Source: Patescibacteria group bacterium (GTDB lineage Bacteria; Patescibacteriota; Minisyncoccia; Phycocordibacterales; UBA12445). From it: a stretch of 64,000 bases of DNA. The position numbers and the translations under genes are program-made. The DNA lies in the NCBI GenBank assembly GCA_003504275.1, contig DOAO01000014.1, positions 8,889-72,888 of the forward strand, read 5' to 3'. This document shows, one piece after another, positions 5,941-47,950 of this stretch; the stretch's first letter is position 1, and the number at the start of each line of letters is the position of its first letter. Below the pieces are notes generated by a model. The model saw only the letters and a list, made by a program, of their open reading frames with translations. It did not search any database and was not told where the DNA came from.

Positions 5941-6741
5941 ATGAACAACCCACACCCTAAAAAATCACTGGGGCAGAACTTTTTAACGTCGCTATCCGCT
6001 CTAAGTAAAATAATAGAGACAGCGGGGCTTTCATCTGACGATATTGTACTAGAGATAGGACCGGGGAAGGGGGCACTCACAGCAGAGATACTTAAAAGCG
6101 GGGCGAAGGTCCTCGCGATAGAAAAAGACAACGAGCTTGTATCTTTTCTTTGCGAAAAATTTCAAAAAGAAGTGGAATTGGGACAACTCATAATCAGAAA
6201 TGAGGATATTTTGGATCTTATTCCTGAGGGTGAGCCGATAATAAAAAATAAATATAAAATAATAGCCAATATTCCGTATTACATCACGGGACAAATAATA
6301 AAAAAGTTTTTAACTGCAACCCATAAGCCGACAAAGATGGTTCTTCTCGTCCAGAAAGAGGTCGCAGAGAGAATTGTGGCTAAGGATGACAAAGAAAGCA
6401 TCCTCTCACTCAGTGTAAAAGCTTATGGCGAACCGAAATATATCCTTAAGGTAAGCCGCGGTTCTTTCTTTCCCGCACCAAATGTTGATTCGGCGATAAT
6501 ACTTATAGACAACATAAAAGAAAACTTTAAAAAGGGGGAAGAAAAAATGTTTTTTGATATCTTGCACGCCGGTTTCGGTCAAAAAAGAAAATTCTTACTT
6601 GGCAATTTGGTAAAAGTGTTTGGGAACAAAGAGAAGTTGACCGAAATATTTAATAAATACAAAATAGATTTAAAGGTGAGGGCGGAAGATTTGAAATTGG
6701 AAGATTGGAGAAAAATAACAGAGGCTATCGGAAATTTATAA
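5941..6741 (+). CDS. rsmA: 16S rRNA (adenine1518/1519-N6)-dimethyltransferase RsmA/KsgA
   Basis: LGQNFL signature, SAM-binding EIGPGKGALT, NIPY motif. Confidence 0.9.
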   Translation: MNNPHPKKSLGQNFLTSLSALSKIIETAGLSSDDIVLEIGPGKGALTAEILKSGAKVLAIEKDNELVSFLCEKFQKEVELGQLIIRNEDILDLIPEGEPIIKNKYKIIANIPYYITGQIIKKFLTATHKPTKMVLLVQKEVAERIVAKDDKESILSLSVKAYGEPKYILKVSRGSFFPAPNVDSAIILIDNIKENFKKGEEKMFFDILHAGFGQKRKFLLGNLVKVFGNKEKLTEIFNKYKIDLKVRAEDLKLEDWRKITEAIGNL

Positions 6742-8352: not shown

Positions 8353-9117
8353 ATGGATTATCTACCAAGTAAAAACTTTATCAAAAAAATTCTTGCGATA
8401 TCCCTTGTAACATTAGGATGGTTTTACTTTTTCGGAGAAAAAAATACCTCAAAACAAGATTTGGTAGAGGATAGTGGGGGAATAATAGTATTTTCTAGGA
8501 CAGGAAACAACTCCTCTTCTAATATGGATAGCGTTAATAGCTGGGGAGATCTTTCAAAAGAAAAAATATTAGAAAATGACTCACTCGCTTCAGTAACGAA
8601 AGGCTTAAATGACAATAATATTTTAAGCGGACTTGAAAGAACTGCGGTTAATGAATTAAATTCTTTTAAAGGAGCGAAGAAATCAGACTACGAAAATTAT
8701 GGTAAGGGCCTGGTGGCCATACTTAAACCATATTCAACGCCTGGCCTTCCAAACGAGAGGGAAATAACGATGGAAGCATTAAGTAGCGGTAACGCAACAG
8801 ATCTTAAAAATGTTGCCATGATGAGCCAACTCCACTTTGTCATTGCAGGAGAACTCAAAAAATTAAAAGTTCCGGAAGAGATAAAATTTAAACACCTTTT
8901 TCTTTTAAATGATATAGAGACACTATCCTATGCCGATCAGCTAATGGTAAATGCTTTTGACGACACAAAAAAAGGAATAGATGCCATTAATTTATACAAA
9001 TCAACGACAAATAGATTTATAAATTCCATTATTGATATAAACAAATTTTTTACAGAACAAAACATTGATTTCAGTAAAAATGAAAAAATAAAGATATACA
9101 TAAACGGAATACAATAA
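8353..9117 (+). CDS. hypothetical membrane-anchored protein
   Basis: N-terminal hydrophobic segment AISLVTLGWFYFF. Confidence 0.4.
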   Translation: MDYLPSKNFIKKILAISLVTLGWFYFFGEKNTSKQDLVEDSGGIIVFSRTGNNSSSNMDSVNSWGDLSKEKILENDSLASVTKGLNDNNILSGLERTAVNELNSFKGAKKSDYENYGKGLVAILKPYSTPGLPNEREITMEALSSGNATDLKNVAMMSQLHFVIAGELKKLKVPEEIKFKHLFLLNDIETLSYADQLMVNAFDDTKKGIDAINLYKSTTNRFINSIIDINKFFTEQNIDFSKNEKIKIYINGIQ

Positions 9118-9121: not shown

Positions 9122-11731
9122 ATGAGAAAGACGGATGAAAAATTTAAAATAGTTTTCAAAAATATTTCGATACTTTTATTTATCGTCGCTTTTTCAATAT
9201 ATCCGACAAAAATATTTGCACAATCAATTCTTCCTTCCGGAACAGGTCTTGACCAGTTCTTATCGGGAAATTTTAACGCTGATGGCGCTAAACAATTCTT
9301 GGAATTAATTCGAAGACAAGCAGCCGACGCCGTATCAAATATGCCGATCATCTCTAACACTCAAACAAACTTCGAAAATAATCTTGCTAAATATAGATCA
9401 TTCCTTGACCAGCTCGGGGGACAAGGTAAAAACATAGGCGACCTCTTAAATCTTGCACAAAGCATCAGCCCTGCAAACGTAGGCTCTCAAATATCTCAAA
9501 TACAGGGTCTTGTATCTACTATTACTTCCTTCAAAGGAGGTGGAGGGGCCTCTGATATCTTAAACGTCTTCTCTCAATTAGAGTCATTAGGCGTTCCCGG
9601 TTTTAGCCAGGCAAATAATGAAATAACAAAAGGAATAAGCAATCTTGGTAGTATAGATAAAGGAATAACCGATATTGCAAAAGAAGTCACAAACATATCA
9701 AGTGCAGCTTCAGAACTTCAATCTGCACAACAGACTCTCCAAAACTTAAAAACATTTGGTGGTTCAAGTTCTGAAGCAATAAAGAAAGCCGAGGGCGCTG
9801 TTGCTGATGCTCAAAAAAAATTAAATGACATTGTCGGCTCAACTGAACAAAAAGCAGGTGGATTTTTCGACCAGGTCAACAATGTTGCCGACACAGAAGC
9901 TATAAGTGACGAATTCCAAACAGCAGGACTTCCTGGCGAAGGAAAAGAACAATCCGTTTGTGATAAACCATCTCCGGGTGTTACTGGTGGAGGAGGTGGT
10001 AATGGTGTGCCAGTGATAGAACAACCAGGACCATTACTTGACCTTACTGGTAAACTTGTAGACTTTACATCAAATATCAGAACAATAAATAAAGAGACTT
10101 GCAAAAAAATAGAACAGCTCTGGAAGAAAGAGTTTGAGCTAGACAAAAAAGTTAAAGAGAAATCTCAAGAAACACTTGAAAAAATTAAAAAAGAATTAAA
10201 AGAATTCCGTGAAAAAGGAAGAAAAGCCTCAAATGATTTAAAGGCTGAGAAATCTTTTTATCCTACAATTTCTGAGTTCATAAAAGAGGAGACCGAAGCA
10301 GCAAGGAATAAGCACTTAAACCAACTAGAAAAAACAAAAGTTAACGACAAGGTAAAAGAGGTTTTTAAAAAGCAAAATGAACTTGATAAAAATGATTCTG
10401 CAAGTTATCTGGCAAGAGTAAGCCCAACAATCGACACCGAAAAAGTTGTCGAACAGGCTAAGGAGCAAAAGGGTGCAACATACTTTGATAGCCTTAAAAA
10501 AATAGCCGACCCAAGAAACAATATTTCTGGTCAATATTTGATACAACTATCGGAAAAACAGACAATGGAGGCAACTGCGGCAAAAAATGCACAAGATGAA
10601 TATGTTTCCGGACAGGGAATCATCGGAACCAAAAAATGTATAAAAACAATAAAAACTGACAGTGGCGAGATGTGTACAGAATGGGAGATTATAACTCCAG
10701 CAAAATTGTTTGGAGGTCTCCAGGAAGAGGCTTATAAGGACAACTTCAAACAAACGGCTAACGCTGACGACATCTCTCACGAAGCCGAAACAACAACAGC
10801 ATCAGGAGAAAAAAAGAAAATCTCAAATCTTGCAGAAGATTATACTAAAGACATAGCGGAGTCATCTGGGGCAGAAGGAAGTGGCCCAGGAGGTACTGAA
10901 GGTGGCGGAAGTAATTACACCAACAATAATTCTACCGTAAACACAGGCGGGGATACAATAAACGAAATTATTAATGAAGGTGGAGGTGGCGACGGAGGTT
11001 TTGACTTATTAGACCTAATAAGTCAAATAGTAAACATGGGCGACAGCGAAGAGCCTGAGTCAAGCACACCAATATCCATACCGCCACCTACTGTTTCATT
11101 TAATACAACCAATAACGGTATGTTTAGCACAAAACTAAATTGGTCTGCGAATGGCGCTGTTTCCTGCAGAGCAACAAATGATTGGATAACCTATTTAGGT
11201 TTCGGCATAGCGACAACTGCCTCCGAAATATTAATTCAAAAAGATGAAGAAATAGAAACAGATGCTTCTTACAATATAGAACATCCATCTGCCTTCTCTT
11301 TTGCTGTAAATGTAACAGGTGGTAATAGAGTGATTCCTGGCCAGATATTACAACCTGCTACGACAACTGTTACTAAAGAGGCGACGGGATTAAAACAAAC
11401 AATAAACTATATTCCAAACATAACAGGAGTTATTGATGGTGATATTTTTAGTATCTATATAAATAGTGATCAAATAATTACGGTGTCTTACTCTGATGGA
11501 GACACACAAGCCGACTTGGTTGCGAAAATAAAATCAGCAATGGATAGCGTCAATCCGACGACAGAAAAAGGTAAAATCTACAGCGCCATAACAAAAACAA
11601 TCAACCAAAACACCCTTACTCTGACAAAAACAGTTCCAAATATACCCGCTTCTGCAATTTATGAACTCGCATGCAAAAATACAGCGGACAAAGAAACAAC
11701 AAAGAAGGTAACAATAGAATTTTTTAAATAA
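9122..11731 (+). CDS. large secreted Gly-rich protein (T4SS-like cluster)
   Basis: Sec-type signal peptide, GGGGNG runs, coiled-coil middle; 869 aa. Confidence 0.5.
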   Translation: MRKTDEKFKIVFKNISILLFIVAFSIYPTKIFAQSILPSGTGLDQFLSGNFNADGAKQFLELIRRQAADAVSNMPIISNTQTNFENNLAKYRSFLDQLGGQGKNIGDLLNLAQSISPANVGSQISQIQGLVSTITSFKGGGGASDILNVFSQLESLGVPGFSQANNEITKGISNLGSIDKGITDIAKEVTNISSAASELQSAQQTLQNLKTFGGSSSEAIKKAEGAVADAQKKLNDIVGSTEQKAGGFFDQVNNVADTEAISDEFQTAGLPGEGKEQSVCDKPSPGVTGGGGGNGVPVIEQPGPLLDLTGKLVDFTSNIRTINKETCKKIEQLWKKEFELDKKVKEKSQETLEKIKKELKEFREKGRKASNDLKAEKSFYPTISEFIKEETEAARNKHLNQLEKTKVNDKVKEVFKKQNELDKNDSASYLARVSPTIDTEKVVEQAKEQKGATYFDSLKKIADPRNNISGQYLIQLSEKQTMEATAAKNAQDEYVSGQGIIGTKKCIKTIKTDSGEMCTEWEIITPAKLFGGLQEEAYKDNFKQTANADDISHEAETTTASGEKKKISNLAEDYTKDIAESSGAEGSGPGGTEGGGSNYTNNNSTVNTGGDTINEIINEGGGGDGGFDLLDLISQIVNMGDSEEPESSTPISIPPPTVSFNTTNNGMFSTKLNWSANGAVSCRATNDWITYLGFGIATTASEILIQKDEEIETDASYNIEHPSAFSFAVNVTGGNRVIPGQILQPATTTVTKEATGLKQTINYIPNITGVIDGDIFSIYINSDQIITVSYSDGDTQADLVAKIKSAMDSVNPTTEKGKIYSAITKTINQNTLTLTKTVPNIPASAIYELACKNTADKETTKKVTIEFFK

Positions 11732-11734
11732 AAA

Positions 11735-13948
11735 ATGAATTTTTGGATAAAAAATAAAAAAATATTGGCGATAATCTTCGTTTTAATTCTTTGTTTTTTT
11801 AATTTTCCCCAAAAAACAAGTGCCGACACGGGAAGTTTCTTATATAATGCCTACAATAATATATTTGGAGAGACGGACATTGGTGCAAATGAAAAAAATG
11901 ACGACATACTACGAGAGAAATTTTTAAATAAAATAGAAAGTCTTAATGCTAAAAAACAAGCAAAAACTATTACCCACGAAGAAGCCACACAACTAGCAAA
12001 TGCTAAAAAAGCATTTGACGATTTTAATACAAAAAATACAAACAAGGATAGCGATCCATCTGCAGGCGCAACCCCAAATTCGTGTACTTTGTTATCGTGG
12101 AGTGTTGGGGCTTGTCTTGAATATGGAATTGCGTGGATTCTTTCTAAGGTAGTTTGGTTGTTCTCTTTTGTTGTGGAAATATCGGCAATGTTTTTTGAAT
12201 TTAGTGTTGATCAATCAATAAATAGTATTGCAAAATACGCCGATTCTAGCGGTGTCCTGACGGCCTGGAAGGTATTGAGGGACACAACAAACATGCTTTT
12301 CCTTATGATAATGATGTATATAGCCATAGGAACAGTGCTTCAATTAGAGGGTGTGAATTGGAAAAAACAAATCGGGGCAATAATAATGGCTGCTATACTT
12401 ATAAATTTCAGCATGACAATCACAAGAGTTGTAGTTGATGTAACTAACGTTTTTGCTGTTTATTTTTATGAACAAGCCAAGGGTGGCGAAAATGGACCGG
12501 GAGTAGCTACTTTAATGTTCCAAAGCCTTAAACTGGAGGACAAAATTTCAAATAAACAGAGTACAAATGTCAGCGATGCAATTTCTCTCGGTACTATAAC
12601 GATAGGCTCAATTGGTAGCATCGTGCTAATGTTGGCAGGTTCTTATGTTCTTTTCCTCGGTGGATTTTTATTTATCATACGTCTTATTTCGTTAATTTTT
12701 TTGATGATACTGTCACCTCTGCCCTGGATAGGAATCGCGGTACCAAAATATGGGGGTAAAATAAGCGGAAACTACTGGGAAAAATTAATGAATCAAGCTC
12801 TTTTTGCTCCTGCATATACATTTTGTCTATATTTTGTAATGAAATTTATATCCTGCGCAGATATTGTTAGTATAGGGAGGGGTGGTTCTATGGAAATGCT
12901 TATGTTTAACATGATAACCATAAGCTTGATGTTTGGTGCTGTTATCGTAGCCAAAGAACTAGGAGCCTCAGGTATGGGCTTGGCACAGACCGGAGCTAAA
13001 ATGGCAATGGGGACAACCCTCGGAGCTGGTATAGGAGCGCTAAGTTTAGCTAAAGGTACTTTAAGCGGAACTTACAAAGGATTAACCACAACACCAGCAC
13101 CAGGACAAGGAAGAACCGCCGCTGTTTTCTCAAATATTGGAACGGAATGGAGTAAGACTGGGGGAGGACTAAAAACAAAAGTGGGGATGGCGTACGATAC
13201 GGCCAAAGAAAAACTTAAGAGCCCCCTTGAATTAACTGGGGATTTGATCAAGTCGGGTACAGGGTTTGATATTATGCCTGGAGAAAAAGAAAGAAAAGAA
13301 CAGGAAAAAGCCGAAAAAGAATACAAAAAGAAACGGGAAATTGAAGCGGCAAAGACACAGCTTAATAATGATTCTAGCGTTATTTCTCAACTCAATATTG
13401 ATGAATCAAAACTCAATACAGCAGATCCAAACTATGCCAACGATAAGTTGAAAATTGATAATGCCAAGAGGGCTGCGGAAAAACGAATACGAGAGAACCT
13501 TCAATATTTCAAGGGAGACAAAATACTTGAACTCGGAGAAAAAATGCTTACAGCACAAGGAAACGAAATTGCTAAATGGATGGATGAAGCTCAATCTAAG
13601 GCTGTTATAGAAAAGAGTGACTTTGACCCTACAAAAGTAGCCGGCATAAAGAATGCTTTGTTTGATAATGAATTTAATACGAGAGGAAAGAGGGTTGTGG
13701 AAACGGATATAGTTCAAAATAGATGGGCGGGTATTGCAAATGATGCAACAGGTGATGCCTTAAAACAAAAATATATAGGAGAGATGGCTTCTAAGAACAT
13801 AGCCGAATTACCAGAAAACATTCTACTTGAAGATTATTCAATTGAAGCAATGAAAGAAAATGATTTAAAGAAAATTAGAGAGACAAGAGGAAATGTCTTA
13901 GCAGACAAAGTAAAAGCAAAAGGAATAGCCCAAGGGAAAACATGGTAA
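11735..13948 (+). CDS. polytopic membrane protein, VirB6/TrbL-like
   Basis: signal/TM N-terminus, at least 6 hydrophobic helices in the central part, long hydrophilic charged C-terminus; position next to VirB4. Confidence 0.45.
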   Translation: MNFWIKNKKILAIIFVLILCFFNFPQKTSADTGSFLYNAYNNIFGETDIGANEKNDDILREKFLNKIESLNAKKQAKTITHEEATQLANAKKAFDDFNTKNTNKDSDPSAGATPNSCTLLSWSVGACLEYGIAWILSKVVWLFSFVVEISAMFFEFSVDQSINSIAKYADSSGVLTAWKVLRDTTNMLFLMIMMYIAIGTVLQLEGVNWKKQIGAIIMAAILINFSMTITRVVVDVTNVFAVYFYEQAKGGENGPGVATLMFQSLKLEDKISNKQSTNVSDAISLGTITIGSIGSIVLMLAGSYVLFLGGFLFIIRLISLIFLMILSPLPWIGIAVPKYGGKISGNYWEKLMNQALFAPAYTFCLYFVMKFISCADIVSIGRGGSMEMLMFNMITISLMFGAVIVAKELGASGMGLAQTGAKMAMGTTLGAGIGALSLAKGTLSGTYKGLTTTPAPGQGRTAAVFSNIGTEWSKTGGGLKTKVGMAYDTAKEKLKSPLELTGDLIKSGTGFDIMPGEKERKEQEKAEKEYKKKREIEAAKTQLNNDSSVISQLNIDESKLNTADPNYANDKLKIDNAKRAAEKRIRENLQYFKGDKILELGEKMLTAQGNEIAKWMDEAQSKAVIEKSDFDPTKVAGIKNALFDNEFNTRGKRVVETDIVQNRWAGIANDATGDALKQKYIGEMASKNIAELPENILLEDYSIEAMKENDLKKIRETRGNVLADKVKAKGIAQGKTW

Positions 13949-13990
13949 GCCTAAACCCCTGAAGAGAAAAAAGTTAAAAAAGTTAAATTT

Positions 13991-14665
13991 ATGAACCAAG
14001 AACCAACACTACTAGAAATTTTTAAATCGGGACCAATTGCCGCCATAGATAAAAATGGGCCTCAAAATACAGTGCACGACAAAAATAAATTAAATGATAT
14101 ATATGACAACCTTCCCGAAGATATAAAGAATGCTATTGCTTCTGTCGATTCATCTGAATCTATATATGAAATAGGCAACAAATTCAAACTACATATGGAT
14201 CAAATCGCACAACTTGGAGCAGAAACAGGATTTGTATTGCTTGGAGTCACTGATCCGATGGAATTTGTAGCAAATGTAAGCCGTGTCTTAAACATAGACA
14301 AGACACTTGCTAGCCAAATAGTGACCGACATAAATGAAAAAATATTTGTTCCCGTTAAGGAGTCGTTGAGACAAATACACTCACAAACCCCGGTTAATAA
14401 ACCTGTTTTAGCTACAACCCCAAATATCATTAAAAATGTTTCAGCCATGGAATTAAATGTTCCAAAGAAAACTGTTGATATATTAAAAGGGAATATCCCA
14501 ATAGCAGAAAAAAGGCAAAATACAGAGATACTGGGATTTAGTTCAGAAAAAAAAGATACAGACAATCTCAACATTATGGAAGAAAAGATGAATGGAAGTT
14601 TCTCTATTCCAAAGTCTGAAAATGGCATAAGCAAACAATCAGATCCATATAGAGAACAAATATAA
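13991..14665 (+). CDS. hypothetical protein
   Basis: 224-aa ORF in the cluster. Confidence 0.4.
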   Translation: MNQEPTLLEIFKSGPIAAIDKNGPQNTVHDKNKLNDIYDNLPEDIKNAIASVDSSESIYEIGNKFKLHMDQIAQLGAETGFVLLGVTDPMEFVANVSRVLNIDKTLASQIVTDINEKIFVPVKESLRQIHSQTPVNKPVLATTPNIIKNVSAMELNVPKKTVDILKGNIPIAEKRQNTEILGFSSEKKDTDNLNIMEEKMNGSFSIPKSENGISKQSDPYREQI

Positions 14666-14688
14666 AGAAGGAAGGTGATGGTTTTTGT

Positions 14689-14777
14689 GTCATTGCGAGA
14701 TTTGAAAATTTTAAAAAAGAAGATCAATCTCTTTTTTAGGAGGTTGAGCTTCCAAAATTTTAAAATCTCGCAATAAC
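14689..14777. repeat. 89-bp palindromic element, TIR GTCATTGCGAG (copy A1)
   Basis: near-identical copies at 15253-15341 and 34962-35050. Confidence 0.8.
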
Positions 14778-14813
14778 AAAAAGAGGAGGGTAAAAATTCA
14801 TTATTCTTATAAA

Positions 14814-15233
14814 ATGCAATTCCAAGTACCACAATTTATTGAAATAGAAGATAAGGTCATAGGACCGTTTACTTTTAGACAATTCCTTTTTCTTTTAGGA
14901 GCGGGAGGAGGAAGTTTCGCCATATACAGAATTATTCCAGCTCCATTTTCATACCTCCTTATCGCCCCCGTTGCAGGACTGGGCCTGGCCCTCGCTTTCT
15001 ATAAAGTAAATAATCGTCCCTTCACAACAATGGTTGAGTCATGGTTCAAATTCAGTCTTGGAAATAAAAGATATTTATGGAAAAAAGAAGCCACAACAAT
15101 AAAAAAAGAGGCTATGGAAATAGAAGGAATGATAAACAAAACAACTATTCCAAAACCGATAGTACCCAAGTTGACCGCCGGTAAATTAAAAGATATTGCA
15201 TGGAGTTTAGATATTAAGGAAAAGATTAAGTAG
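14814..15233 (+). CDS. small two-TM membrane protein (VirB3-like candidate)
   Basis: 139 aa, two hydrophobic helices; bracketed by two copies of the 89-bp element. Confidence 0.4.
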   Translation: MQFQVPQFIEIEDKVIGPFTFRQFLFLLGAGGGSFAIYRIIPAPFSYLLIAPVAGLGLALAFYKVNNRPFTTMVESWFKFSLGNKRYLWKKEATTIKKEAMEIEGMINKTTIPKPIVPKLTAGKLKDIAWSLDIKEKIK

Positions 15234-15252
15234 GAATTAAGATAAAGGACTC

Positions 15253-15341
15253 GTTGTTGCGAGATTTGAAAATTTTAAAAAAGAAGCTCAACCTCTTTTT
15301 TAGAAGGTTGAGCTTCCAAAATTTTCAAATCTCGCAATGAC
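15253..15341. repeat. 89-bp palindromic element (copy A2)
   Basis: gttgttgcgagatttgaaaatttt...ctcgcaatgac. Confidence 0.8.
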
Positions 15342-15558
15342 AAAAAATAGGAAACGAGGTGCAAGGGTGTTAAAATAATGAAGAGGAACGTAAAGCGAAA
15401 AGCGAAAAATGCAAAATAACAATTTAAAATTAAAAAGAAACAAAAAAAATACCATCAAGGTCGAATATTTTAATAATAAAAAGCGAAAATACAACTTTTT
15501 TACTTTGATTTTTACACTGTTGTTTTTCGCTTTTAGTTTTTAGTTTTACACTTTTAAA

Positions 15559-16212
15559 ATGGCTGAAGCTAAAGCAACACAAGATTTTGTACAAGTTAAG
15601 GAAATAAGAGACGGCATCGTCGTTCTAAAAGACGGAACAATGCTTATGATTTTCATGTGCTCGTCCTTAAACTTCGCTCTAAAATCGGCAGATGAGCAAC
15701 AGGCGATAACCTTACAATATCAAAACTTCTTAAATTCCCTTGATTTTACCTTTCAAATAGTTGTCCAATCCCGACGACTGGACATTAGGCCATATTTAAC
15801 ATCTCTTTCCGAAAGAATGGGACTTCAATCTAATGAACTTCTAAAAATACAATTAAAAGAATATATAAATTTTATAAGAAGCTTTACAGAAGGAGTGAGT
15901 ATAATGGAGAAAAGTTTCTATGCGGTAGTTCCATATCAACCACCAATATTTCAGGCATCTGGCAATGGCGGGGGAGTAGCATCAAAAATATTCAATATCT
16001 TTGGAGGAAAAACCGACAGTCGAGAACAAAAAAAACAAGAACTTTTAACTTTTGAAGAAAACCGAACTCAATTAGAGCAAAGGGCCAGTGTTGTTTCGCA
16101 AGGATTAATGAGATGCGGTGTCAGATCTGTTGCGCTTGGTACAGAAGAATTGATAGAGCTTTTTTATAAAATATTCAATCCGGAAGAATCAGGCGGTGTT
16201 CCAAAGTTTTAA
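15559..16212 (+). CDS. hypothetical protein upstream of VirB4
   Basis: 217 aa; same frame as VirB4 but separated by two in-frame stops. Confidence 0.45.
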   Translation: MAEAKATQDFVQVKEIRDGIVVLKDGTMLMIFMCSSLNFALKSADEQQAITLQYQNFLNSLDFTFQIVVQSRRLDIRPYLTSLSERMGLQSNELLKIQLKEYINFIRSFTEGVSIMEKSFYAVVPYQPPIFQASGNGGGVASKIFNIFGGKTDSREQKKQELLTFEENRTQLEQRASVVSQGLMRCGVRSVALGTEELIELFYKIFNPEESGGVPKF

Positions 16213-16242
16213 TTTGTAATTGATAATTCGTAATTAACTAAT

Positions 16243-18042
16243 ATGGCCATATTTGGTGGAAAAGAAGAAAATAAAATAGAAGCGGTACTTCCTCAAGATA
16301 TTTATTCTAGTGGAACTCTTGAGTTACGTGACGTTATTTCACCGTCAGCTCTTGAAATTGGCTCTAATAGTATGAAAATAGGAGAGAAGGTGGCAAGGAC
16401 TTTCTATGTTATCTCTTACCCTAGGTTTCTAGCGGAAAATTGGTTTTCTCCAATCATAAATTTAGACAAAATATTTGATATTTCACTTATAATACATCCG
16501 ATAGACACATCAATGGTTTTGAGACAGCTTCAAAAGAAGCTTGCCGAAGTGCAAAGTCAAATACACGCCAATGAAACAAAAGGATTAGTTCGAGACCCAA
16601 TGCTTGATACAGCATATCAAGACATAGAGTCACTAAGAGACCAATTACAACAAGCAAGGGAGAGAGTATTTGATGTTGGTCTGTATATGACTATTTATGC
16701 TAGTTCTGAGGAAGAATTAAACAAAGTAGAGGCGGAGGTAAAAACAATAATGGAATCAAGGCTGGTATATGTTAAACCGGCACTTTTCCAGCAAGAAGAA
16801 GGATTTGATAGTGTTATTCCTATTGCTTCGGATAAATTATCGGTCAACACAAAATTAAATTCCTCTCCACTATCTAGTATCTTCCCATTTATCTCTTTTG
16901 ATTTAACCTCCAACAAAGGAATTCTTTATGGAATAAATAGACATAATTCCAGTTTAATAATTTTTGACAGATTTTCTTTGGAAAACTATAACTCTGTCAT
17001 CTTCGCAAAATCAGGTTCAGGAAAATCTTACTTCACAAAACTGGAGATTTTGAGATCGTTAATGTTTGACGTAGATGTTATTATTATCGACCCAGAAAGA
17101 GAGTATGAGTACTTAGCTGAAGCTGTCGGTGGAAGATTTTTCAACATTTCATTGTCTTCAGAACACCATATTAATCCTTTTGACCTGCCTTTTGTGAGAG
17201 ACGATGAAGCTCCTGCGGATGTTTTAAGATCTCATATAATAAATCTAGTCGGGCTTTTCAGAATAATGATGGGAGGAATGACTCCCGAGGAAGACGCTGT
17301 AATGGATAATGCCATTAGGGAGACTTACGCCCTAAAAGATATTACAGCAGAGTCTGATTTCTCATCTGCAACACCGCCACTTCTCTCAGACCTTGAGCTT
17401 GTTCTCGCAGGAATGGATGGAGGAGCTTCACTTGCGCAAAGACTCCTCAAATACACACAAGGAACATGGGCCGGTTTCTTAAATAGACCAACAAACGTCG
17501 ATATAAACAAAAAATTCGTAGTATTTTCTGTCAGAGACATGGAAGATGAACTCAAGCCTGTCGCAATGCATATTGTAATGAACAATATTTGGGGTTCTGT
17601 CAGAAGAGAACTAAAAAAGAGAATGCTTATCGTTGATGAAGCCTGGTGGATGATGAAATCTCCTGATACGGCCTCATTTATGTTGAGCCTAGCCAAAAGA
17701 GGTAGAAAATATTTCCTGGGCCTCACTACTATTACTCAGGACGTGAAAGACTTTTTGGAATCACCGTACGGAGTACCAATCATCACAAACTCTTCAATGC
17801 AAGTACTATTCAAACAGTCAACAGCATCCATAGATATAGTTCAAAAGACATTTAACCTCACGGATGAAGAAAAATATTTATTACTGGAATCCAACGTAGG
17901 GGAGGGGATATTTTTTGCAGGACTCAAGCATGTTGCAATAAAAGTTATTGCTTCATACACAGAAGATCAGATAATCACGTCAGACCCATCACAGCTTTTG
18001 TCCATAAAAAGATCAAAAGAAGAATTGAAGGCAAGCGAATAG
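16243..18042 (+). CDS. virB4: VirB4/TrbE/TraC-family secretion ATPase
   Basis: Walker A AKSGSGKSY, Walker B LIVDEAWWMM (the DEAW signature), CagE/TrbE/VirB4-like N-domain. Confidence 0.7.
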   Translation: MAIFGGKEENKIEAVLPQDIYSSGTLELRDVISPSALEIGSNSMKIGEKVARTFYVISYPRFLAENWFSPIINLDKIFDISLIIHPIDTSMVLRQLQKKLAEVQSQIHANETKGLVRDPMLDTAYQDIESLRDQLQQARERVFDVGLYMTIYASSEEELNKVEAEVKTIMESRLVYVKPALFQQEEGFDSVIPIASDKLSVNTKLNSSPLSSIFPFISFDLTSNKGILYGINRHNSSLIIFDRFSLENYNSVIFAKSGSGKSYFTKLEILRSLMFDVDVIIIDPEREYEYLAEAVGGRFFNISLSSEHHINPFDLPFVRDDEAPADVLRSHIINLVGLFRIMMGGMTPEEDAVMDNAIRETYALKDITAESDFSSATPPLLSDLELVLAGMDGGASLAQRLLKYTQGTWAGFLNRPTNVDINKKFVVFSVRDMEDELKPVAMHIVMNNIWGSVRRELKKRMLIVDEAWWMMKSPDTASFMLSLAKRGRKYFLGLTTITQDVKDFLESPYGVPIITNSSMQVLFKQSTASIDIVQKTFNLTDEEKYLLLESNVGEGIFFAGLKHVAIKVIASYTEDQIITSDPSQLLSIKRSKEELKASE

Positions 18043-18069
18043 TGTGCGGGTAGTTTAATATTTAAAAAA

Positions 18070-18468
18070 ATGAAAGAGAATAAGAACAAAATGACGTCTG
18101 TCCACTGGTTCATACTTTTTCAATTCGCCGTTATTTTTGATGTAATAGGGTGGATATTGGCATTAGGTATAGATGTCGCCACATTTGGTGTTGCTGGTGT
18201 TATTTTAAACCTAACTGCCGTAATGGTATTTTTAACCTTTGCTCTCGTATGGAGAAATAAAGGAATCGGCGACTTTAAATTTCTAACTTCTATGGGGAAA
18301 AACTTTCTAGTGGAGGGGATTCCTTTTGCCGGCACCATATTACCAATGTGGATTTCATTTATTTATAGAGCGAGAAAAAGTTATATAAAATCATCCGGAA
18401 CATCGTTGGCTGGAATTGTAGCAGGAGCTTCTGGACAAAAAATAGAAAACAAAATGGCACAAGCATAA
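18070..18468 (+). CDS. small polytopic membrane protein
   Basis: 132 aa, 3-4 hydrophobic helices. Confidence 0.45.
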   Translation: MKENKNKMTSVHWFILFQFAVIFDVIGWILALGIDVATFGVAGVILNLTAVMVFLTFALVWRNKGIGDFKFLTSMGKNFLVEGIPFAGTILPMWISFIYRARKSYIKSSGTSLAGIVAGASGQKIENKMAQA

Positions 18469-18471
18469 AAT

Positions 18472-19476
18472 ATGAGAAAAAAAATACTTAAGACAATAAT
18501 AGCGTTCATTTTATTCTCTCCACTAATTGGATTGACAGCAACGGTTTACCCAAGTATCGGAGGTAACGTTATGTTTACCCTTGAACCAAAAAATCCAGGC
18601 CCCAACTCTCAAGCAACGATAAAGGTTTCTAGTTATGTAATAGACACGACCGAGGCAAATATTTCATGGTATTTGGGAGACAAATTAGAAATGGAAGGCA
18701 TTGGAAAAGATATTTTCTCTTTTAAAACAGGGTCCATAGGAAAACCTATTATAATAAAAATGATAGCTGATATTAATGGTCAAAGAATGGGCCGAGCGAT
18801 TTCAATAATTCCAGCCGAAGTTGATATCGTATGGGAAGCTAATACATACGTACACCCCTCTTATAAAGGAAAGGCGATGGCCTCCCCAAAAAGCTCCATA
18901 AAAATAATAGCAATACCTCAATTCAAAACAGAAAACGGAACAACAATTCCAACAAACGAGCTTAAATATGAATGGAAAAAAGGAACAGCGATTATTCTTT
19001 CTGGGCTCGGAAAAAATATTTTTAACACAGACATTGGTAGCCCACTAGCAGAGGAGGAGATAAAACTTTTGGTTTCTGACAGAAACGGGCAAATAACGAC
19101 GGAAAAAATAATAACCATTATTCCGGAAGACCCTGAAATTATTTTTTACAAAGAAAACCCAACGGAAGGGACTGAATATAATAATTCACTGACTGGATAT
19201 GTAAATTTAGAAGAAAAAGAAATTAGCGTAAGAGCAGAACCGTTTTTCTTCTCTTATCCAAGTTCAGCAAAAGAAGCCAACCTTATGTTTAGCTGGAATA
19301 TAAATGAAAAAGGAGTCCTACCAAATGATGGAACGCCAAAAATAATTACATTAAGAAATGAATCGGGGCAAGGATTAACGTCTAGTATTTCTCTGTCTAT
19401 CAAGAACGCCTACAAAGTATTTCAAGAGGCAACAAACGATTTTATATTGGAATCAACAGCGGGATTTAAATTTTAA
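18472..19476 (+). CDS. secreted protein
   Basis: signal peptide-like N-terminus. Confidence 0.45.
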   Translation: MRKKILKTIIAFILFSPLIGLTATVYPSIGGNVMFTLEPKNPGPNSQATIKVSSYVIDTTEANISWYLGDKLEMEGIGKDIFSFKTGSIGKPIIIKMIADINGQRMGRAISIIPAEVDIVWEANTYVHPSYKGKAMASPKSSIKIIAIPQFKTENGTTIPTNELKYEWKKGTAIILSGLGKNIFNTDIGSPLAEEEIKLLVSDRNGQITTEKIITIIPEDPEIIFYKENPTEGTEYNNSLTGYVNLEEKEISVRAEPFFFSYPSSAKEANLMFSWNINEKGVLPNDGTPKIITLRNESGQGLTSSISLSIKNAYKVFQEATNDFILESTAGFKF

Positions 19477-19479
19477 AAT

Positions 19480-19965
19480 ATGATTAGAAAAAATACAAAA
19501 AAAATAATTATTCTAATATTTGTTTTATCGTTGCCTATAATTTCTTTTGCCGCAAAATATACACTCCTTGAAACATTCAGTGACACACAACAAAAAGTTG
19601 TTACAAATCCTATGGAATATATAACAAGCTTATATTGGTATGTTCTGGGGCTAACGGTGGCACTTTCTATATTGATGATGATTGTTGGAGGTCTTGAATA
19701 CACGCTTACTTGGGCCAGCGAAAGCAAAAAAGGTGAAGCAAAAAATAGAATAGAAAACGCAATAATTGGACTTTTAATAGCTTTAACTGCCTATTTATTA
19801 CTTAATACAATAAATCCAAAATTAGTTGCCTTCAACCTAAATGAAGCTGGGATAAGTTGTGAAACAGCACCGGCAGGAGGAGTTACTACTGGAATTACCG
19901 CGGGAGTCAATGCGGGATTTGTTCAGGGAAAAGCCACAGGAGGGGGGGGTTATAGTGAATTTTAA
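19480..19965 (+). CDS. VirB2/TrbC-like pilin candidate
   Basis: signal peptide plus two hydrophobic segments, the topology typical of T4SS pilins; G8 tract near the 3' end. Confidence 0.4.
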   Translation: MIRKNTKKIIILIFVLSLPIISFAAKYTLLETFSDTQQKVVTNPMEYITSLYWYVLGLTVALSILMMIVGGLEYTLTWASESKKGEAKNRIENAIIGLLIALTAYLLLNTINPKLVAFNLNEAGISCETAPAGGVTTGITAGVNAGFVQGKATGGGGYSEF

Positions 19966-19971
19966 ATAAAT

Positions 19972-21300
19972 ATGAACAATCAAAACTATCGCACACTAAT
20001 AATTGTAATATCACTGGTCATAATATTAGTCGTTGTACTAACCGTATTTCTCCTTTCTAGGCAAGAAACTGTTCCAGAACCAACGGTGACACAAAGTGCA
20101 CCATCTTCCACAGAAACAAAAAGTAATACGAGTTCCTTTCCAACATCAGAAAATGTAACTTCAACAGAGAAAGAAACCGCCCCAACCACACAAAATATTA
20201 TTCCGGAAATAAACCCCACCGAACAAGAAGTGGCGGTAACAGAAGAAGGGACAATCGTTGGAGAGATAAAAAATACAGCAGATATTGCCACCGGAGGAAT
20301 GACTTTTATTGAAAAAGATAGAAATGGAACTAAAACAACCTTTGTTAGATATATAGAAAAAGGAACAGGTCACATAAAAGAAATCGCTTTTGATGAAAAT
20401 ATTCCTACAAAAGTTTCAAATTACACAATACTAGGAATAGTCAATTCCTTATGGAGCAAAGACGGATCTTCTGTTGTTATAAGAAGATTAGATGGTGTAG
20501 ATAATAATATTCAAACAGTTTATGGAATAATAGAAACAGGTTCAAGTACTTCAACTATGCCGGAAGGGGAGGTAGGTACGCTAAACGGAACGATTCTTCC
20601 TTCAAATACTATTGATGTAGCAGTGTCACCTCAGGGAGATAGGCTATTTTATTTAATTAAAAATGGCGATTCAGTGACGGGAGCTGTTTCTGATTTTAAA
20701 GGAACTGACCCTTTCAACAAAAAAATAAATATTTGGAATTCACCTATATCAGAGTGGCAAATAACCTGGCCAAAACAAGACCAAATAATGTTATTAACCA
20801 AACCCGCCTATAATGTTTCCGGTATTCTTTATTCCCTCCTCGTTCCAAAAGACAACAAACAAGAGAAGTTACTCGGTGATATTACAGGATTAACTGCAAT
20901 TGTAAGCAATAGTGGTAAAAAAATAATATATTCAGAAACCACAGGTTCTGGTTTTATGACTTATATCTTAGACAAACAAAATAATGAATTAAAAGTATTT
21001 CCTGCAAAGACCCTACCAGAAAAATGTGTCTGGAGTAAAACAAACGAGAACGTTGTTTATTGTGGGGTTCCAAAAAATATAATTGGCTCAAAATATCCCG
21101 ATTCTTGGTATAAGGGGATAATATCATTTAATGACGATATCTACAGAATAGACCTGGACGTTAACTCAAAAAGAAAGATAGTGGTAACAGGTCAACCTGA
21201 TGGATTGGATGCAACAGGGCTCATATTAAGCACTAATGAAGACTACTTATCGCTCATCAACAAGAAAGATGGAAAGATTTGGACAATTAAATTAAAGTAA
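19972..21300 (+). CDS. membrane-anchored protein with Ser/Thr-rich linker and probable beta-propeller domain
   Basis: N-terminal TM helix, low-complexity S/T/E/P linker, repeated beta-strand-like blocks. Confidence 0.45.
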   Translation: MNNQNYRTLIIVISLVIILVVVLTVFLLSRQETVPEPTVTQSAPSSTETKSNTSSFPTSENVTSTEKETAPTTQNIIPEINPTEQEVAVTEEGTIVGEIKNTADIATGGMTFIEKDRNGTKTTFVRYIEKGTGHIKEIAFDENIPTKVSNYTILGIVNSLWSKDGSSVVIRRLDGVDNNIQTVYGIIETGSSTSTMPEGEVGTLNGTILPSNTIDVAVSPQGDRLFYLIKNGDSVTGAVSDFKGTDPFNKKINIWNSPISEWQITWPKQDQIMLLTKPAYNVSGILYSLLVPKDNKQEKLLGDITGLTAIVSNSGKKIIYSETTGSGFMTYILDKQNNELKVFPAKTLPEKCVWSKTNENVVYCGVPKNIIGSKYPDSWYKGIISFNDDIYRIDLDVNSKRKIVVTGQPDGLDATGLILSTNEDYLSLINKKDGKIWTIKLK

Positions 21301-21304: not shown

Positions 21305-21336
21305 AAACCGCCCCACTTGTTGGGGCGGTTTTTTAA
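21305..21336 (+). terminator. intrinsic terminator between the convergent cluster and yidC
   Basis: accgcccca-cttgt-tggggcggt hairpin followed by TTTTTT. Confidence 0.7.
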
Positions 21337-21360: not shown

Positions 21361-22080
21361 TTATCTAATTTTCTCAGCCTTTCTTTTTACCATGACTTCA
21401 TGAGCAATACTAAAAGCATTGCTTGTTATCCAAAAAACGGAAACCGCTGCATTAAGCTTAGCGGCTATAAAGATTATAAAAATAGGCAAAAAATACTTAA
21501 TTTGCCAATTCATACTTTTGGCAAAATCATCAGCAAAAGAGGGGTTCTTGTCTTTTATTTTTGGCAATTCTGGAACGGAAAGTTTTGTTTGAATAAATTG
21601 TGTTAAACCAACTAAAATAGCTAAATAGATATTAGATTCGGAAAGATCAATTAGGCCTAAAAACATTGTGTTTATGGTTGATGGTATTAAATTAAAAGAA
21701 AAAATTACAGGGGAAGTAAGGTCTATGTTGTTGCTAAATATATAATAGAGAGCAATAAACATCGGGAGTTGAATAAAAAGCAAAAAAATACTGGCAAAAG
21801 GATTAACTCCATGTTCCTTGTATAAATTCATTATTTTAACAGCCTGCTCTTCTTGTTTACCTTTATATAATTCTTTTATTCTTCTGATTTCCGGATCTAT
21901 TTCTTTAAGTTTTCTTTGAGCCTTTATAGAAATATGAGAAAGAGGCAAAATTAAAATTTTTATTAAAACAGTAAGAACAACAACGGCCAAACCGAAGTCA
22001 TTGCTAGGGGAGAGTGCGCTTAGAAGCACAATAGCGTTATAAAGAGGGTAATAAAAAATATCAAAAATAAAAGAAAACAT
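21361..22080 (-). CDS. yidC: membrane protein insertase YidC/Oxa1 (short form)
   Basis: multi-TM protein with conserved YidC core; classic rpmH-rnpA-yidC synteny. Confidence 0.8.
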   Translation of the reverse strand: MFSFIFDIFYYPLYNAIVLLSALSPSNDFGLAVVVLTVLIKILILPLSHISIKAQRKLKEIDPEIRRIKELYKGKQEEQAVKIMNLYKEHGVNPFASIFLLFIQLPMFIALYYIFSNNIDLTSPVIFSFNLIPSTINTMFLGLIDLSESNIYLAILVGLTQFIQTKLSVPELPKIKDKNPSFADDFAKSMNWQIKYFLPIFIIFIAAKLNAAVSVFWITSNAFSIAHEVMVKRKAEKIR

Positions 22081-22143
22081 TTTTAGAAAGAATTAAGAGT
22101 TATGAATAAAGAATTAAGCCCACTCAAAAAAATAACAACTTTT

Positions 22144-22479
22144 TTATAGTAACACTTTAGCCACATTTAACAAAGAAATAATCTCCTTTTCAAGATCCGC
22201 AAAAGATACTTTGTTTGCTCCTTCTTTAGCAAAGAAAGCTCCCATAAAACCTGGATTAATTTTGTCCTTCAGTTTTCTTACAATATGACGGCCTCTTCTT
22301 TTAAATAAATTTCTTTCTATTGCTTTCTTTGCAATCTTTCCAGACACAACAAAAGAAAAACAGCTTGGAAGCATCTCTTCTTTAGAAAGGACGACGTACT
22401 TGAAAGACAAAAGAGGGGAATAGATATTCTTACCCTTTTTAAGAATTGTTTCAAAATTTTCTCTGCTCACTTTTAACAT
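22144..22479 (-). CDS. rnpA: ribonuclease P protein component
   Basis: 111-aa basic protein with KRRGRHIVRK; position between rpmH and yidC. Confidence 0.7.
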   Translation of the reverse strand: MLKVSRENFETILKKGKNIYSPLLSFKYVVLSKEEMLPSCFSFVVSGKIAKKAIERNLFKRRGRHIVRKLKDKINPGFMGAFFAKEGANKVSFADLEKEIISLLNVAKVLL

Positions 22480-22566
22480 TATATTTAAAGAATAGAATAA
22501 AAAAGAAAAAATTACGAATTAAGCATTCGTAATTTTTATTATTTTTAAAAAATCATTTAGACAGGA

Positions 22567-22701
22567 TTAGACAGTCAATTTACTCCTACCTTTTCTTCTT
22601 CTTCTTTGGACAACTTTCTTGCCCCCAGGAGTTCCTTGTCTAACCAAAAAACCGTGTGTTTTGGCTCTCTTTCTCTTTTTAGGATTATATGTCTTTGACA
22701 T
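22567..22701 (-). CDS. rpmH: 50S ribosomal protein L34
   Basis: 44-aa ORF absent from the track (<60 aa); translates to [44 protein letters not shown], a clear L34. Confidence 0.85.
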
Positions 22702-22832
22702 TCCTCGATATTATCTTGTTTTTATTAAAAATGCAAGTAAATGTCTTTATCAAAAGACATTTACGCCGTCCCGTAGGAAATTTCTAATCAAAAACAAACA
22801 AAGAAAGAACTGGGCCGTTAGACCGTCTACAG

Positions 22833-22933
22833 GTGTCTGCCTATATTTGGCAGACCTGTCTACAAGCCTGCCTGTCCGGTAGGCAGGTGCCGATGTTAAT
22901 CCCCATCGGCTGTCGATGTAAGTTCCATCGACC
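22833..22933. repeat. repeat module C (ccgtctacaggtgtctgcc...cctgtccggtaggcaggtg...catcgac)
   Basis: related copies inside 51190-51327, 31684-31772 and 43735-43790. Confidence 0.6.
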
Positions 22934-22939
22934 GCTATC

Positions 22940-23331
22940 GTGAAAAACAATAAAAATAACCAAAATAATTTATTCGAATTTTCCTACAGGGACAAGAGAT
23001 TTACCTTTTTTCACAATTTTTCTCTTATTTCACTGGGATTTACCTCGCTAAATTAAAGGTGGTAAATAAAAAATAAAAATCAGACAACCTTTCTTCCTAT
23101 TATTTTAATATATAATAAAATCTTTCCTATAAAAAAATCTATTTTTATCGTTCAAAACACAAATAATAAACAAATAAACAATTTAAGAAGAAGCGTCAAT
23201 AATAAAGTAAACAAAGAAGAAAAACTTCCTCTAAAGTTATCCACACATAATCCACCTATTATAAACAAAAAAGTCTAGTTCCATTTTCAAAGTCCAGGCA
23301 TATAATTATCTTTGTAGGATCTAAATTAAAC
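22940..23331. promoter_or_regulatory. oriC candidate (AT-rich DUE plus DnaA boxes) upstream of dnaA
   Basis: perfect DnaA box TTATCCACA at 23237-23245, near-box TAATCCACC at 23248-23256, long AT-rich tract 23040-23230. Confidence 0.6.
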
Positions 23332-24717: not shown

Positions 24718-25001
24718 TTTTCCACAATGATGGTCATAAATATATATTAAGACTGTTAAAAACGTGGGGATAAAGATGAGGAAAGTTGTGTGAATAATGG
24801 GAAGAACTATTCATCCTTTTTTACAACAGGAATTAATCCCAAATTAATAATTTTAGAGTCACAAAGTATTACACAGGGGCACTTCAAAAATTACATTAAC
24901 AGTAAAAGATAAATTGAAGTTATTAACATATCAACAGAGCTAATAGTAGTAATAATTTTTTTATATAAATATATTTACACAACTAAAAAGAAAAAAAATT
25001 T
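24718..25001. promoter_or_regulatory. dnaA-dnaN intergenic DnaA-box cluster (second oriC module)
   Basis: TTTTCCACA at 24718-24726; TGTGAATAA (reverse complement TTATTCACA) at 24791-24799; TGGGGATAA about 24753-24761. Confidence 0.5.
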
Positions 25002-31688: not shown

Positions 31689-31772
31689 TGCGAGAGTAAC
31701 AATAACGAGAGGGATTGCTTCGTTCCACCGTCTACGGGTGTCGACGTTAATCTCCGTCGACCTCGCAATGAT
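31684..31772. repeat. palindromic element with GTCATTGCGAG TIRs carrying module C
   Basis: gtcattgcgagagtaac...ccgtctacgggtgtcgacgttaatctccgtcgacctcgcaatgatgac. Confidence 0.7.
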
Positions 31773-47924: not shown

Positions 47925-47950
47925 CGGCAAACCCAAAGAGATGGCTAATT

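Follow-up and report, generated by a model that had tools for sequence, protein, structure and literature searches.

We analysed a 64,000-nucleotide stretch of DNA from a Patescibacteria group bacterium (contig DOAO01000014.1 of assembly GCA_003504275.1, positions 8,889 to 72,888; hereafter the window) which carries, between ksgA and the yidC-rnpA-rpmH/dnaA-dnaN region, a co-oriented gene cluster encoding parts of a type IV secretion system (T4SS). This cluster is probably the Paceibacteria version of the chromosomal T4SS of Patescibacteria, which would have derived from the monoderm conjugation machinery of the MPF-FATA class (pCF10/CD1110-like), lost the parts needed for DNA processing and been retained for interaction with a host. 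The kind of locus has already been described in studies published from 2023 to 2025 (PMC10633639, PMC12102498), and the window holds a clean, complete Paceibacteria example rather than a new type of system. A first-pass annotation of the same DNA, prepared from the sequence alone, had proposed a minimal T4SS-like cluster and had referred to reduced loci of this type as established biology in bacteria from the Candidate Phyla Radiation (CPR). Both papers bear out this statement, and the proposal is thus the correct recognition of a known system, not a novel one. The locus is indeed a reduced T4SS-like one; the word minimal is arguable in view of the ten conserved gene families which, as judged from the comparison of relatives, define it in Paceibacteria.

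The window originates from a Patescibacteria (CPR) genome of the class Paceibacteria. A 102-kb contig from a groundwater metagenome of the Rifle aquifer (PRJNA268031) encodes the 599-amino acid (aa) ATPase of the cluster without any change. For Parcubacteria group bacterium GW2011_GWF2_38_76, the 737-aa protein is deposited as UT05_C0003G0085 and the 869-aa protein as UT05_C0003G0086. When each GTDB species was scanned in a single genome, 578 loci with relatives of the window VirB4 were obtained, all of them in metagenome-assembled genomes of Patescibacteria. The best 80 of these 578 loci (72–79% VirB4 identity) were compared by calling of open reading frames (ORFs) and phmmer searches, and the presence of each family was counted only over those loci whose sequence covers the respective position (Table 1).

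Across these 80 species-level Paceibacteria genomes, the genes follow a fixed order: uvrD, ksgA, p254, p869 family, VirB6-like gene, p224, PrgI, TrsD, VirB4, an optional small membrane protein, p334, pilin, propeller, yidC-rnpA and dnaA-dnaN. The same order was found on two further contigs. The flanks, ksgA on one side and yidC-rnpA-dnaA on the other, are identical in approximately 60 species, and the yidC-rnpA-rpmH/dnaA-dnaN context is kept in approximately 55–62 of 57–64 relatives. In the window, uvrD and ksgA lie upstream of the cluster, and the start of dnaA is located 2 kb downstream of it, with rpmH, rnpA and yidC in between on the opposite strand. All ORFs named in the first-pass annotation were present at their positions on the forward strand, and all cluster ORFs are intact. 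That annotation had let the cluster begin at position 9122; as each of the 37 loci that extend to ksgA has a member of the p254 family, the conserved unit opens one gene earlier, at 8353. Intergenic gaps measure 3–48 bp apart from two gaps around prgI. The cluster consists of three translationally tight gene blocks, and in GC content it matches the flanking DNA.

The individual components differ strongly in their rate of change. Median identities to the window proteins are 74% for VirB4, 55% for TrsD and 45% for PrgI, and 26–37% for the proteins predicted to be exposed, with p869 being hypervariable. For comparison, the initiator DnaA and the clamp DnaN reached 56% and 45%, and VirB4 (16243–18042) is thus more conserved among the 80 loci than either of them (dnaA, 23332–24717). 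The cytoplasmic and inner-membrane parts are accordingly the most conserved and the predicted surface parts the least, a gradient which fits surface exposure to a partner cell. The fixed synteny together with a VirB4 conservation above that of DnaA points to a core machine that is vertically inherited and equipped with fast-evolving surface parts, and neither to a mobile element nor to a decaying remnant.

Table 1. Features of the T4SS-like cluster and its origin-proximal flank (window positions; relatives with the family are given over the loci that cover the position)
Feature	Position	Strand	Basis or property	Relatives
p254, N-terminally membrane-anchored protein, first gene of the unit	8353..9117	+		37/37
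p869, large secreted hypervariable protein, 869 aa	9122..11731	+	signal segment, residues 8-26	33/37 (positional equivalents)
p737, extended VirB6-like polytopic membrane protein, 737 aa	11735..13948	+	transmembrane (TM) prediction, AlphaFold 2 (AF2), Foldseek, hhalign	58/59
p224, soluble protein with C-terminal DPYRE motif	13991..14665	+	no TM segment	59/69
REP-like palindrome copy A, p224-prgI spacer	~14693..14782		90 nt, 94% identical to copy B
PrgI/VirB3-family small membrane protein, 139 aa	14814..15233	+	PF12666	73/74
REP-like palindrome copy B, prgI-trsD spacer	~15257..15346		90 nt
TrsD-like protein, 217 aa	15559..16212	+	NF045975, NF045971, NF041427, PF26593	80/80
VirB4 ATPase without N-terminal domain, 599 aa	16243..18042	+	NF045971, PF19044, PF12846
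p132, small polytopic membrane protein, variable accessory	18070..18468 (gene caller: 18091, 125 aa)	+	2-3 TM segments	3/81 (sequence homologues)
p334, signal/anchor and three tandem beta-rich repeats	18472..19476	+	TM residues 5-23	76/76
VirB2-like T4SS_pilin, 161 aa	19480..19965	+	PF18895	72/72
p442, TM-anchored seven-bladed beta-propeller (modelled), 442 aa	19972..21300	+	AF2, Foldseek	67/68
GC-rich hairpin between convergent p442 and yidC	21305..21331		11-bp stem, 7 GC pairs, T-runs on both sides
Origin-proximal context, outside the machine	21361..26105	yidC -, rnpA -, rpmH -, dnaA +, dnaN +	Pfam; rpmH 22567-22701, dnaA 23332-24717, dnaN 25002-26105

The 599-aa protein is a VirB4 ATPase. 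It matched the NCBIfam model NF045971 (VirB4-like, CD1110 family of Gram-positive Firmicutes), its best curated family, with 370.2 bits at a cutoff of 325, gave E-values of 5e-51 with TIGR02746 and 3e-33 with TIGR00929, and aligned with residues 215–772 of PrgJ from pCF10 with 26% identity over 567 aa (E 1e-40). The Walker A motif reads SGSGKS and the Walker B motif VDEAW, in the context MLIVDEAWW; the DEAW of the latter had been noted in the first-pass annotation. An FtsK/HerA identity of the ATPase was rejected, as all strong matches belong exclusively to the VirB4/TraC/TrbE families and the HerA/DUF87 match (34.8 bits) reflects the generic P-loop only. The neighbouring genes matched T4SS families as well, namely PF12666, PF18895 and TrsD. 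The outcome which the first-pass annotation had named as refuting its proposal, an ATPase grouping with FtsK/HerA and neighbours devoid of T4SS matches, was thus not observed.

The match to NF045971 covers positions 183–733 of the 752 model positions, and the N-terminal domain of VirB4 is encoded by the preceding gene. The 217-aa product of this gene matched the N-terminal regions of VirB4 models, i.e. positions 102–222 of NF045975 (VirB4_plasma; E 1.4e-8, below the cutoff set for the full-length model) and positions 2–101 of NF045971 (E 2e-5), as well as the TrsD model NF041427 (E 3e-3, below the curated cutoff), and PF26593 (TraC-like) is its precomputed Pfam match. VirB4 is thus encoded as two polypeptides, TrsD as the N-terminal domain and the 599-aa ATPase. 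The first-pass annotation had recognised the ATPase and overlooked the split, as the 217-aa ORF was not singled out. In the relatives, trsD is located directly upstream of virB4 in 80 of 80 loci, with 55% identity. The small membrane protein encoded upstream of trsD belongs to the PrgI/VirB3 family, as it matched PF12666 with 45.7 bits (cutoff 27; E 9.7e-12).

The 737-aa protein was assigned as a VirB6-like component with moderate support. A signal peptide and a helical ectodomain at the N-terminus are followed by a bundle of approximately 6–7 TM helices, a disordered linker (residues 413–515) and a helical C-terminal domain (residues 517–732). The hydrophilic tail of the protein measures approximately 330 aa; the signal peptides of this protein and of p869 were judged by eye. 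The AF2 model showed a mean predicted local distance difference test (pLDDT) score of 74.8. Its sole high-probability match in the PDB obtained with Foldseek was chain 7o3v_J of the VirB5/VirB6 stalk of R388 (probability 0.99, E 0.08, TMt 0.44), which must be TrwI/VirB6 because its 260 modelled residues exceed the 226 aa of TrwJ/VirB5. In agreement with this, the family profile aligned by hhalign with the C-terminal half of PrgH from pCF10 (probability 62%, E 7.6e-5) and, over the same segment, with TrwI of R388 (E 1.5e-3). Pfam TrbL was matched by 5 of 26 family members, and the window protein itself gave no Pfam match. With its large C-terminal helical domain, the protein agrees with the extended VirB6 type of a 2025 review that covers the Patescibacteria T4SS (PMC12857230). 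The proposal of a VirB6/TrbL-like polytopic protein with hydrophilic tail is moderately supported by these results. Single-sequence searches of the PDB with p869, p737 and p442 yielded chance-level matches only.

On the outer side, the 161-aa protein is a VirB2-like pilin which matched PF18895 with 29.7 bits (cutoff 26.6). The predicted layout, a signal peptide and two hydrophobic helices (hydrophobic segments at residues 9–27, 54–72 and 91–109) followed by a 50-aa tail rich in Gly, Thr and Ala, agrees with the pilin topology proposed in the first-pass annotation. Among the orthologues, PF18895 was found in 61 of 72 and TrbC/VirB2 (PF04956) in 6 of 72. The family profile gave no signal by hhalign with TrwL, the VirB2 protein of R388, and the pilin assignment therefore rests on PF18895 and PF04956. 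The orthologues are considerably longer than the window protein, with a median of 329 aa against 161 aa and most of them having 300–590 aa. In approximately 19 of 72, the protein also contains domains active on peptidoglycan, namely NlpC/P60, YkuD, M15/VanY, SLT, Amidase_5 and 3D. One such fusion is backed by an independent gene call, and an example is the T4SS_pilin–YkuD fusion of one relative (L003:8588–9997). These fusions raise the question whether the pilin always polymerises. Pfam and NCBIfam scans of the window cluster proteins revealed no peptidoglycan hydrolase (VirB1-like) domain.

The adjacent p442 was confirmed by structure prediction as a membrane-anchored seven-bladed beta-propeller; the first-pass annotation had named a TM-anchored beta-propeller. 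An N-terminal TM anchor is followed by a predicted disordered linker rich in Ser, Thr and Pro (approximately residues 35–89, about 55 residues) and by the propeller, and residues C352 and C364 are invariant. The AF2 model had a mean pLDDT of 85.3 and a predicted template modelling (pTM) score of 0.77, and Foldseek returned hundreds of matches to propellers of the WD40/TolB type with E-values down to 5e-10. PD40 was detected in 3 of 56 homologues and PG_binding_1 in 2.

Five further proteins accompany these components. The gene of p254 ends 4 bp before that of p869, and many of its relatives carry DxDxDG calcium-binding motifs. No Pfam match was obtained for p254, and its profile hit no known family in searches of the PDB and Pfam. 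Both p254 and p334 were considered as VirB8 candidates and rejected, as their profiles aligned with PrgL of pCF10 with probabilities below 1%. The soluble p224 gave no match in Pfam, NCBIfam or the PDB, including profile searches; within its C-terminal motif, D218 shows no variation, and P219, Y220 and E222 show almost none. At the position of the small membrane protein p132, approximately 45 of 80 relatives have a protein of 107–324 aa with 1–5 predicted TM segments. In p334, the repeats have a length of approximately 100 aa, with W66, W168 and W275 being invariant at approximately 100-aa spacing. Comparison of its profile with the PDB revealed weak matches to immunoglobulin (Ig)-like proteins, namely T4 Hoc (E 0.0027) as well as a decoration protein of a capsid, and the repeats are probably Ig-like and extracytoplasmic.

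The large protein p869 was described in the first-pass annotation as a Gly-rich protein with a Sec signal. The N-terminal signal segment is present and its cleavage site was read as ...IFA/QS; the protein is not Gly-rich, with 8.7% Gly overall and four short poly-G tracts. Homologues were rare: 5.8 billion clusters contained no more than 2, and a search of 1.84 billion proteins gave 160 representatives. The positional equivalents in the relatives have 323–1146 aa and signal peptides. Members of the family are linked transitively only, by a hitherto unclassified core of approximately 115 aa with two conserved Cys residues (p869 residues ~440–560; window positions 10439–10800) and the pattern GGW..W...P.NNpyG...GqGFls..C...C..tTPGs.I...l.lADe.d.i..Al. 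This core is the sole part common to the family members encoded upstream of the VirB6-like gene. Neither p869 nor its core matched Pfam or the PDB, and a Pfam scan of eight long relatives revealed no informative fused domain.

Several components of complete conjugation systems were absent from the 64-kb window, to which the following negative results refer. PcfG and MobC of pCF10 gave no tblastn match at E≤0.1, and no relaxase domain was found in the window ORFs. The VirD4 coupling protein PcfC gave no tblastn match at E≤1, and all window ORFs of at least 400 aa were assigned to something other than VirD4. Neither PrgK nor PrgL of pCF10 found a counterpart by tblastn, and VirB9 and VirB10 were not matched by Pfam or NCBIfam. 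A VirB8-like protein was not found among the cluster proteins in Pfam, NCBIfam or PDB searches. The only T2SSE-family ATPase in the window is a 565-aa protein of the PilB/GspE type with an MshEN domain (35063–36760, reverse strand), which lies 14 kb from the cluster and is not VirB11. The window thus encodes no relaxase, VirD4 or VirB11, as the first-pass annotation had asserted. The pilB/GspE-type gene is located between ruvB and tsaE, and its surroundings in the window contain no further genes of type IV pili.

The components identified suggest how the machine might work. For its assembly, substrate, direction of transport and role in host contact, we infer from published work or by analogy. 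The motor would be the two-piece VirB4, composed of the TrsD N-terminal domain and the 599-aa ATPase, and would dock at the membrane through PrgI/VirB3 and the extended VirB6-like channel protein. On the outside, the VirB2-like pilin, the Ig-like p334, the tethered and wall-spanning p442, the anchored p254 and the fast-evolving p869 may form or decorate a conduit or fibre that crosses the wall. This structure would contact the host cell and move macromolecules needed for the epibiotic lifestyle. Published observations in favour of it are the essentiality of the system and its pilins in Southlakia epibionticum (PMC10633639) and tube-like structures extending to the host in a cultivated member of the phylum (bioRxiv 10.64898/2026.06.21.733656). 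Some observations weigh against such a host-interaction T4SS. The assignment of VirB6 leans on weak scores (Foldseek E 0.08, hhalign probability 62%), and the protein found in most relatives, which is long and often fused to an enzyme, does not fit easily with a pilin that simply polymerises. It is in Saccharimonadia and not in Paceibacteria that the T4SS has been shown to be essential and to act in host contact. VirB8-like and VirB1-like components were not detected in the window, and no substrate, effector or signal could be identified in the locus. As to the missing coupling protein, VirD4 homologues of Patescibacteria are, according to the literature, commonly encoded far from virB4, and a distant VirD4 may lie outside the 64 kb covered here.

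The transport could also run in the opposite direction, with a reversed T4SS drawing host RNA, DNA or other macromolecules into the cell like archaeal Ced or Helicobacter ComB. The cluster lacks the coupling protein and relaxase which DNA export would need, Patescibacteria are devoid of nucleotide synthesis, and a central role in nutrition would suit the very high conservation of VirB4. Moreover, a 2026 preprint (bioRxiv 10.64898/2026.06.21.733656) reported tubular structures penetrating the host and uptake of host RNA by a cultivated member of the phylum and suggested T4SS pili as a possible basis; the preprint itself calls the uptake mechanism unresolved. VirB4 also matched CedB, an ATPase of DNA import, weakly (NF041017, E 2e-9), but its 36.6 bits compare with a cutoff of 700 and are far below the score obtained with the CD1110 family. 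The cluster contains no CedA-like or ComEC-like partner, with no dedicated search of the CedA type having been made, and Southlakia epibionticum requires comEC and type IV pili for competence, with deletion of comEC leaving viability intact (PMC12857230). We regard an importer as unlikely. A bolder version, in which the machine is an essential feeding conduit for host RNA or nucleotides, the p869 family sets host specificity and the wall-enzyme-fused pilin orthologue opens envelopes, appears improbable to us.

The peptidoglycan-active domains on pilin orthologues, their median length, the PG_binding_1 domain on some propeller orthologues and the failure of the pilin to align with TrwL would all suit a module for envelope remodelling or adhesion, in which the pilin were merely a two-helix anchor placing hydrolases and wall-binding proteins and neither pilus nor channel were formed. 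This is quite improbable, as VirB4, VirB3 and the VirB6-like protein are parts of translocation and assembly which are conserved alongside under the strongest constraint. Membrane-anchored hydrolases are furthermore a usual accessory of Gram-positive T4SSs, e.g. PrgK, and the window pilin carries no enzyme domain. A further reading is a conjugative element that moves DNA between cells, either an integrative and conjugative element (ICE) or a plasmid that has integrated, or a recent remnant of such an element. The argument for it is that VirB4, PrgI and the VirB6-like protein have their nearest characterised relatives among proteins for conjugation from plasmids and ICEs of Firmicutes. No relaxase, coupling protein, integrase or repeat boundaries were found beside the cluster, and the sole recombinase of the window is located 33 kb away next to a type I restriction-modification system. 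The cluster occupies the same chromosomal site between ksgA and yidC/dnaA in approximately 60 species, with intact ORFs, a GC content equal to the flanks and a VirB4 conserved above DnaA. The ICE or plasmid reading was rejected on the basis of synteny and conservation and is extremely unlikely.

The two larger gaps around prgI contain palindromes which look like repetitive extragenic palindromic (REP) or terminator elements. They belong to an intergenic family distributed over the whole window with the ends GTCATTGCGAG...CTCGCAATGAC, for which 17 matches were found against 0.5 expected. Other members of this family of nested palindromes are located at 1575, 3642, 31684–31772, 34962–35050, 40836–40920, 47883–47925 and 51190–51324; besides the two copies at prgI, a third of the family lies directly 3′ of pilB. 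The prgI-trsD spacer of 325 bp forms a long nested hairpin (−80.5 kcal/mol, z −6.2). As this spacer usually measures 0–30 bp in relatives, it represents a local insertion, which probably acts as a terminator or an RNA-stability element. In one relative (L004:4528–4902), a 124-aa gene of the 23S_rRNA_IVP/bAvd family is inserted in the prgI-trsD spacer, where the window has the palindrome insertion. The hairpin between p442 and yidC probably serves as a terminator in both directions, at which the cluster ends. Scans for consensus promoters and terminators performed no better than on shuffled sequence, save for two strong hairpins, and Rfam revealed three tRNAs only and no RNA family in the cluster spacers.

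The first-pass annotation had placed the cluster next to the replication origin and head-on to a leftward fork. One perfect DnaA box was found at 23237 and three with one mismatch at 24718–24797 in the dnaA-dnaN spacer; based on these boxes and the dnaA-dnaN context, an adjacent origin is likely. The GC skew of the window tracks the coding strand without a switch at 23 kb, so that skew neither locates the origin nor shows the direction of the fork. The cluster would be head-on to a leftward fork if oriC were located in the rpmH-dnaA or the dnaA-dnaN spacer, which is an unverified matter of geometry alone. Its orientation relative to dnaA-dnaN is conserved in approximately 60 species. A 46-nt repeat with its own hairpin (CCTGCCTGTCCGGTAGGCAGG) occurs in the rpmH-dnaA spacer (22858–22903) and near tRNA-Arg (51213–51258) with 89% identity.

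Other parts of the window contain further genes of interest. Between ksgA and the cluster, a soluble protein of 505–522 aa is encoded at 6705–8273 (gene caller start 6756), which has no counterpart in 47 relatives and in which N- and C-terminal segments of approximately 65 aa are repeated (NFEELYQ..GG..GSK..Y.AS.LK.II..VR.G.L.I.Y.T....LRDKV..LI). Between uvrD and ksgA, a Dcm-type cytosine methyltransferase (3895–4851, forward strand) overlaps tail-to-tail with an HNH-motif protein (4848–5453, reverse strand); the two form a probable type II restriction-modification pair (3895–5453). The region 52178–63433 is a possible integrated island beside tRNA-Ser (52178–52267). It contains two unknown ORFs, a large serine recombinase (54100–55422, reverse strand), a YgjP-like hydrolase and a type I restriction-modification system consisting of hsdM (55533–57278), hsdS (57280–58437) and hsdR (59949–62861) with two inserted ORFs.

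Patescibacteria, which spend their life attached to other microorganisms, account for much of bacterial diversity. Few of their machines have been demonstrated to be indispensable for this lifestyle, and the T4SS is one of them. The window and its 80 relatives provide a set of ten families including five uncharacterised envelope or accessory proteins. Structural and genetic studies of the way in which ultra-small symbionts exploit their hosts find concrete targets in these accessory families and the pilin fusions. Five conserved accessory families, the pilin-hydrolase fusions in relatives and the REP-like palindromes flanking prgI appear to be new details; the cited T4SS papers do not mention a fusion of pilin and hydrolase in Paceibacteria relatives.

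Quinonero-Coronel et al. (2025, PMC12102498) studied 3,035 Patescibacteria genomes and described a monophyletic VirB4 clade nested in MPF-FATA, with TrsD as the commonest partner and PrgI/VirB3, VirB6 and PF18895/VirB2-like pilins near virB4. Relaxases were almost absent and coupling proteins rarely nearby, and the T4SS of Paceibacteria was located close to dnaA, dnaN, rnpA, ksgA and rpmH. By Tn-seq, Wang et al. (2023, PMC10633639) found a homologous T4SS and pilins (SEML1_0006–0019) to be essential for epibiotic growth of S. epibionticum. The window agrees with these systems in a VirB4 that appears close to MPF-FATA, in TrsD, PrgI/VirB3, the putative VirB6-like protein and a PF18895 pilin near virB4, in the absence of a relaxase and of a nearby coupling protein, and in the chromosomal site beside ksgA, rnpA, rpmH, dnaA and dnaN reported for Paceibacteria. 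Saccharimonadia and Microgenomatia commonly have pilin genes in arrays of 2–11, whereas the window has one pilin gene, and the peptidase and lysozyme genes downstream of virB4 in S. epibionticum have no equivalent in the window. The accessory set of p254, the p869 family, p224, p334 and the tethered propeller is not described in either paper.

Among the characterised conjugation systems, R388 Trw and Agrobacterium VirB (MPF-T) share the VirB2-type pilin, VirB3, VirB4 and a putative VirB6 with the window, and TrwI is the best PDB fold match of p737. In contrast, the outer-membrane core of MPF-T (VirB7, VirB9, VirB10) as well as VirB5, VirB8, VirB11 and VirD4 are missing from the window, and its VirB6-like protein is of the extended type with a large C-terminal domain. 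The Trs system of the Staphylococcus plasmids pGO1/pSK41, a subclass of MPF-FATA, likewise has a separate TrsD related to the N-terminus of VirB4 (PMC12102498); according to the literature, the pGO1 subclass is devoid of a VirB6 homologue and is a conjugative plasmid system with relaxase and coupling protein. The plasmid pCF10 of Enterococcus faecalis encodes the coupling protein PcfC, the relaxase PcfG, the hydrolase PrgK, VirB8-like PrgL and PrgD and LPXTG adhesins, none of which is detectable in the window. Furthermore, pCF10 is a mobile plasmid with an unsplit VirB4 and no pilin, whereas the window has a pilin and a split VirB4 at a fixed chromosomal locus. Both have a monoderm architecture without VirB7, VirB9 and VirB10 and a collinear core of prgH (VirB6), prgI (VirB3) and prgJ (VirB4), the window VirB6-like protein aligning with the C-terminal half of PrgH. 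If the pilin-fused hydrolase of the relatives is included, the gene order VirB6, VirB3, VirB4, hydrolase is collinear with prgH-prgI-prgJ-prgK of pCF10.

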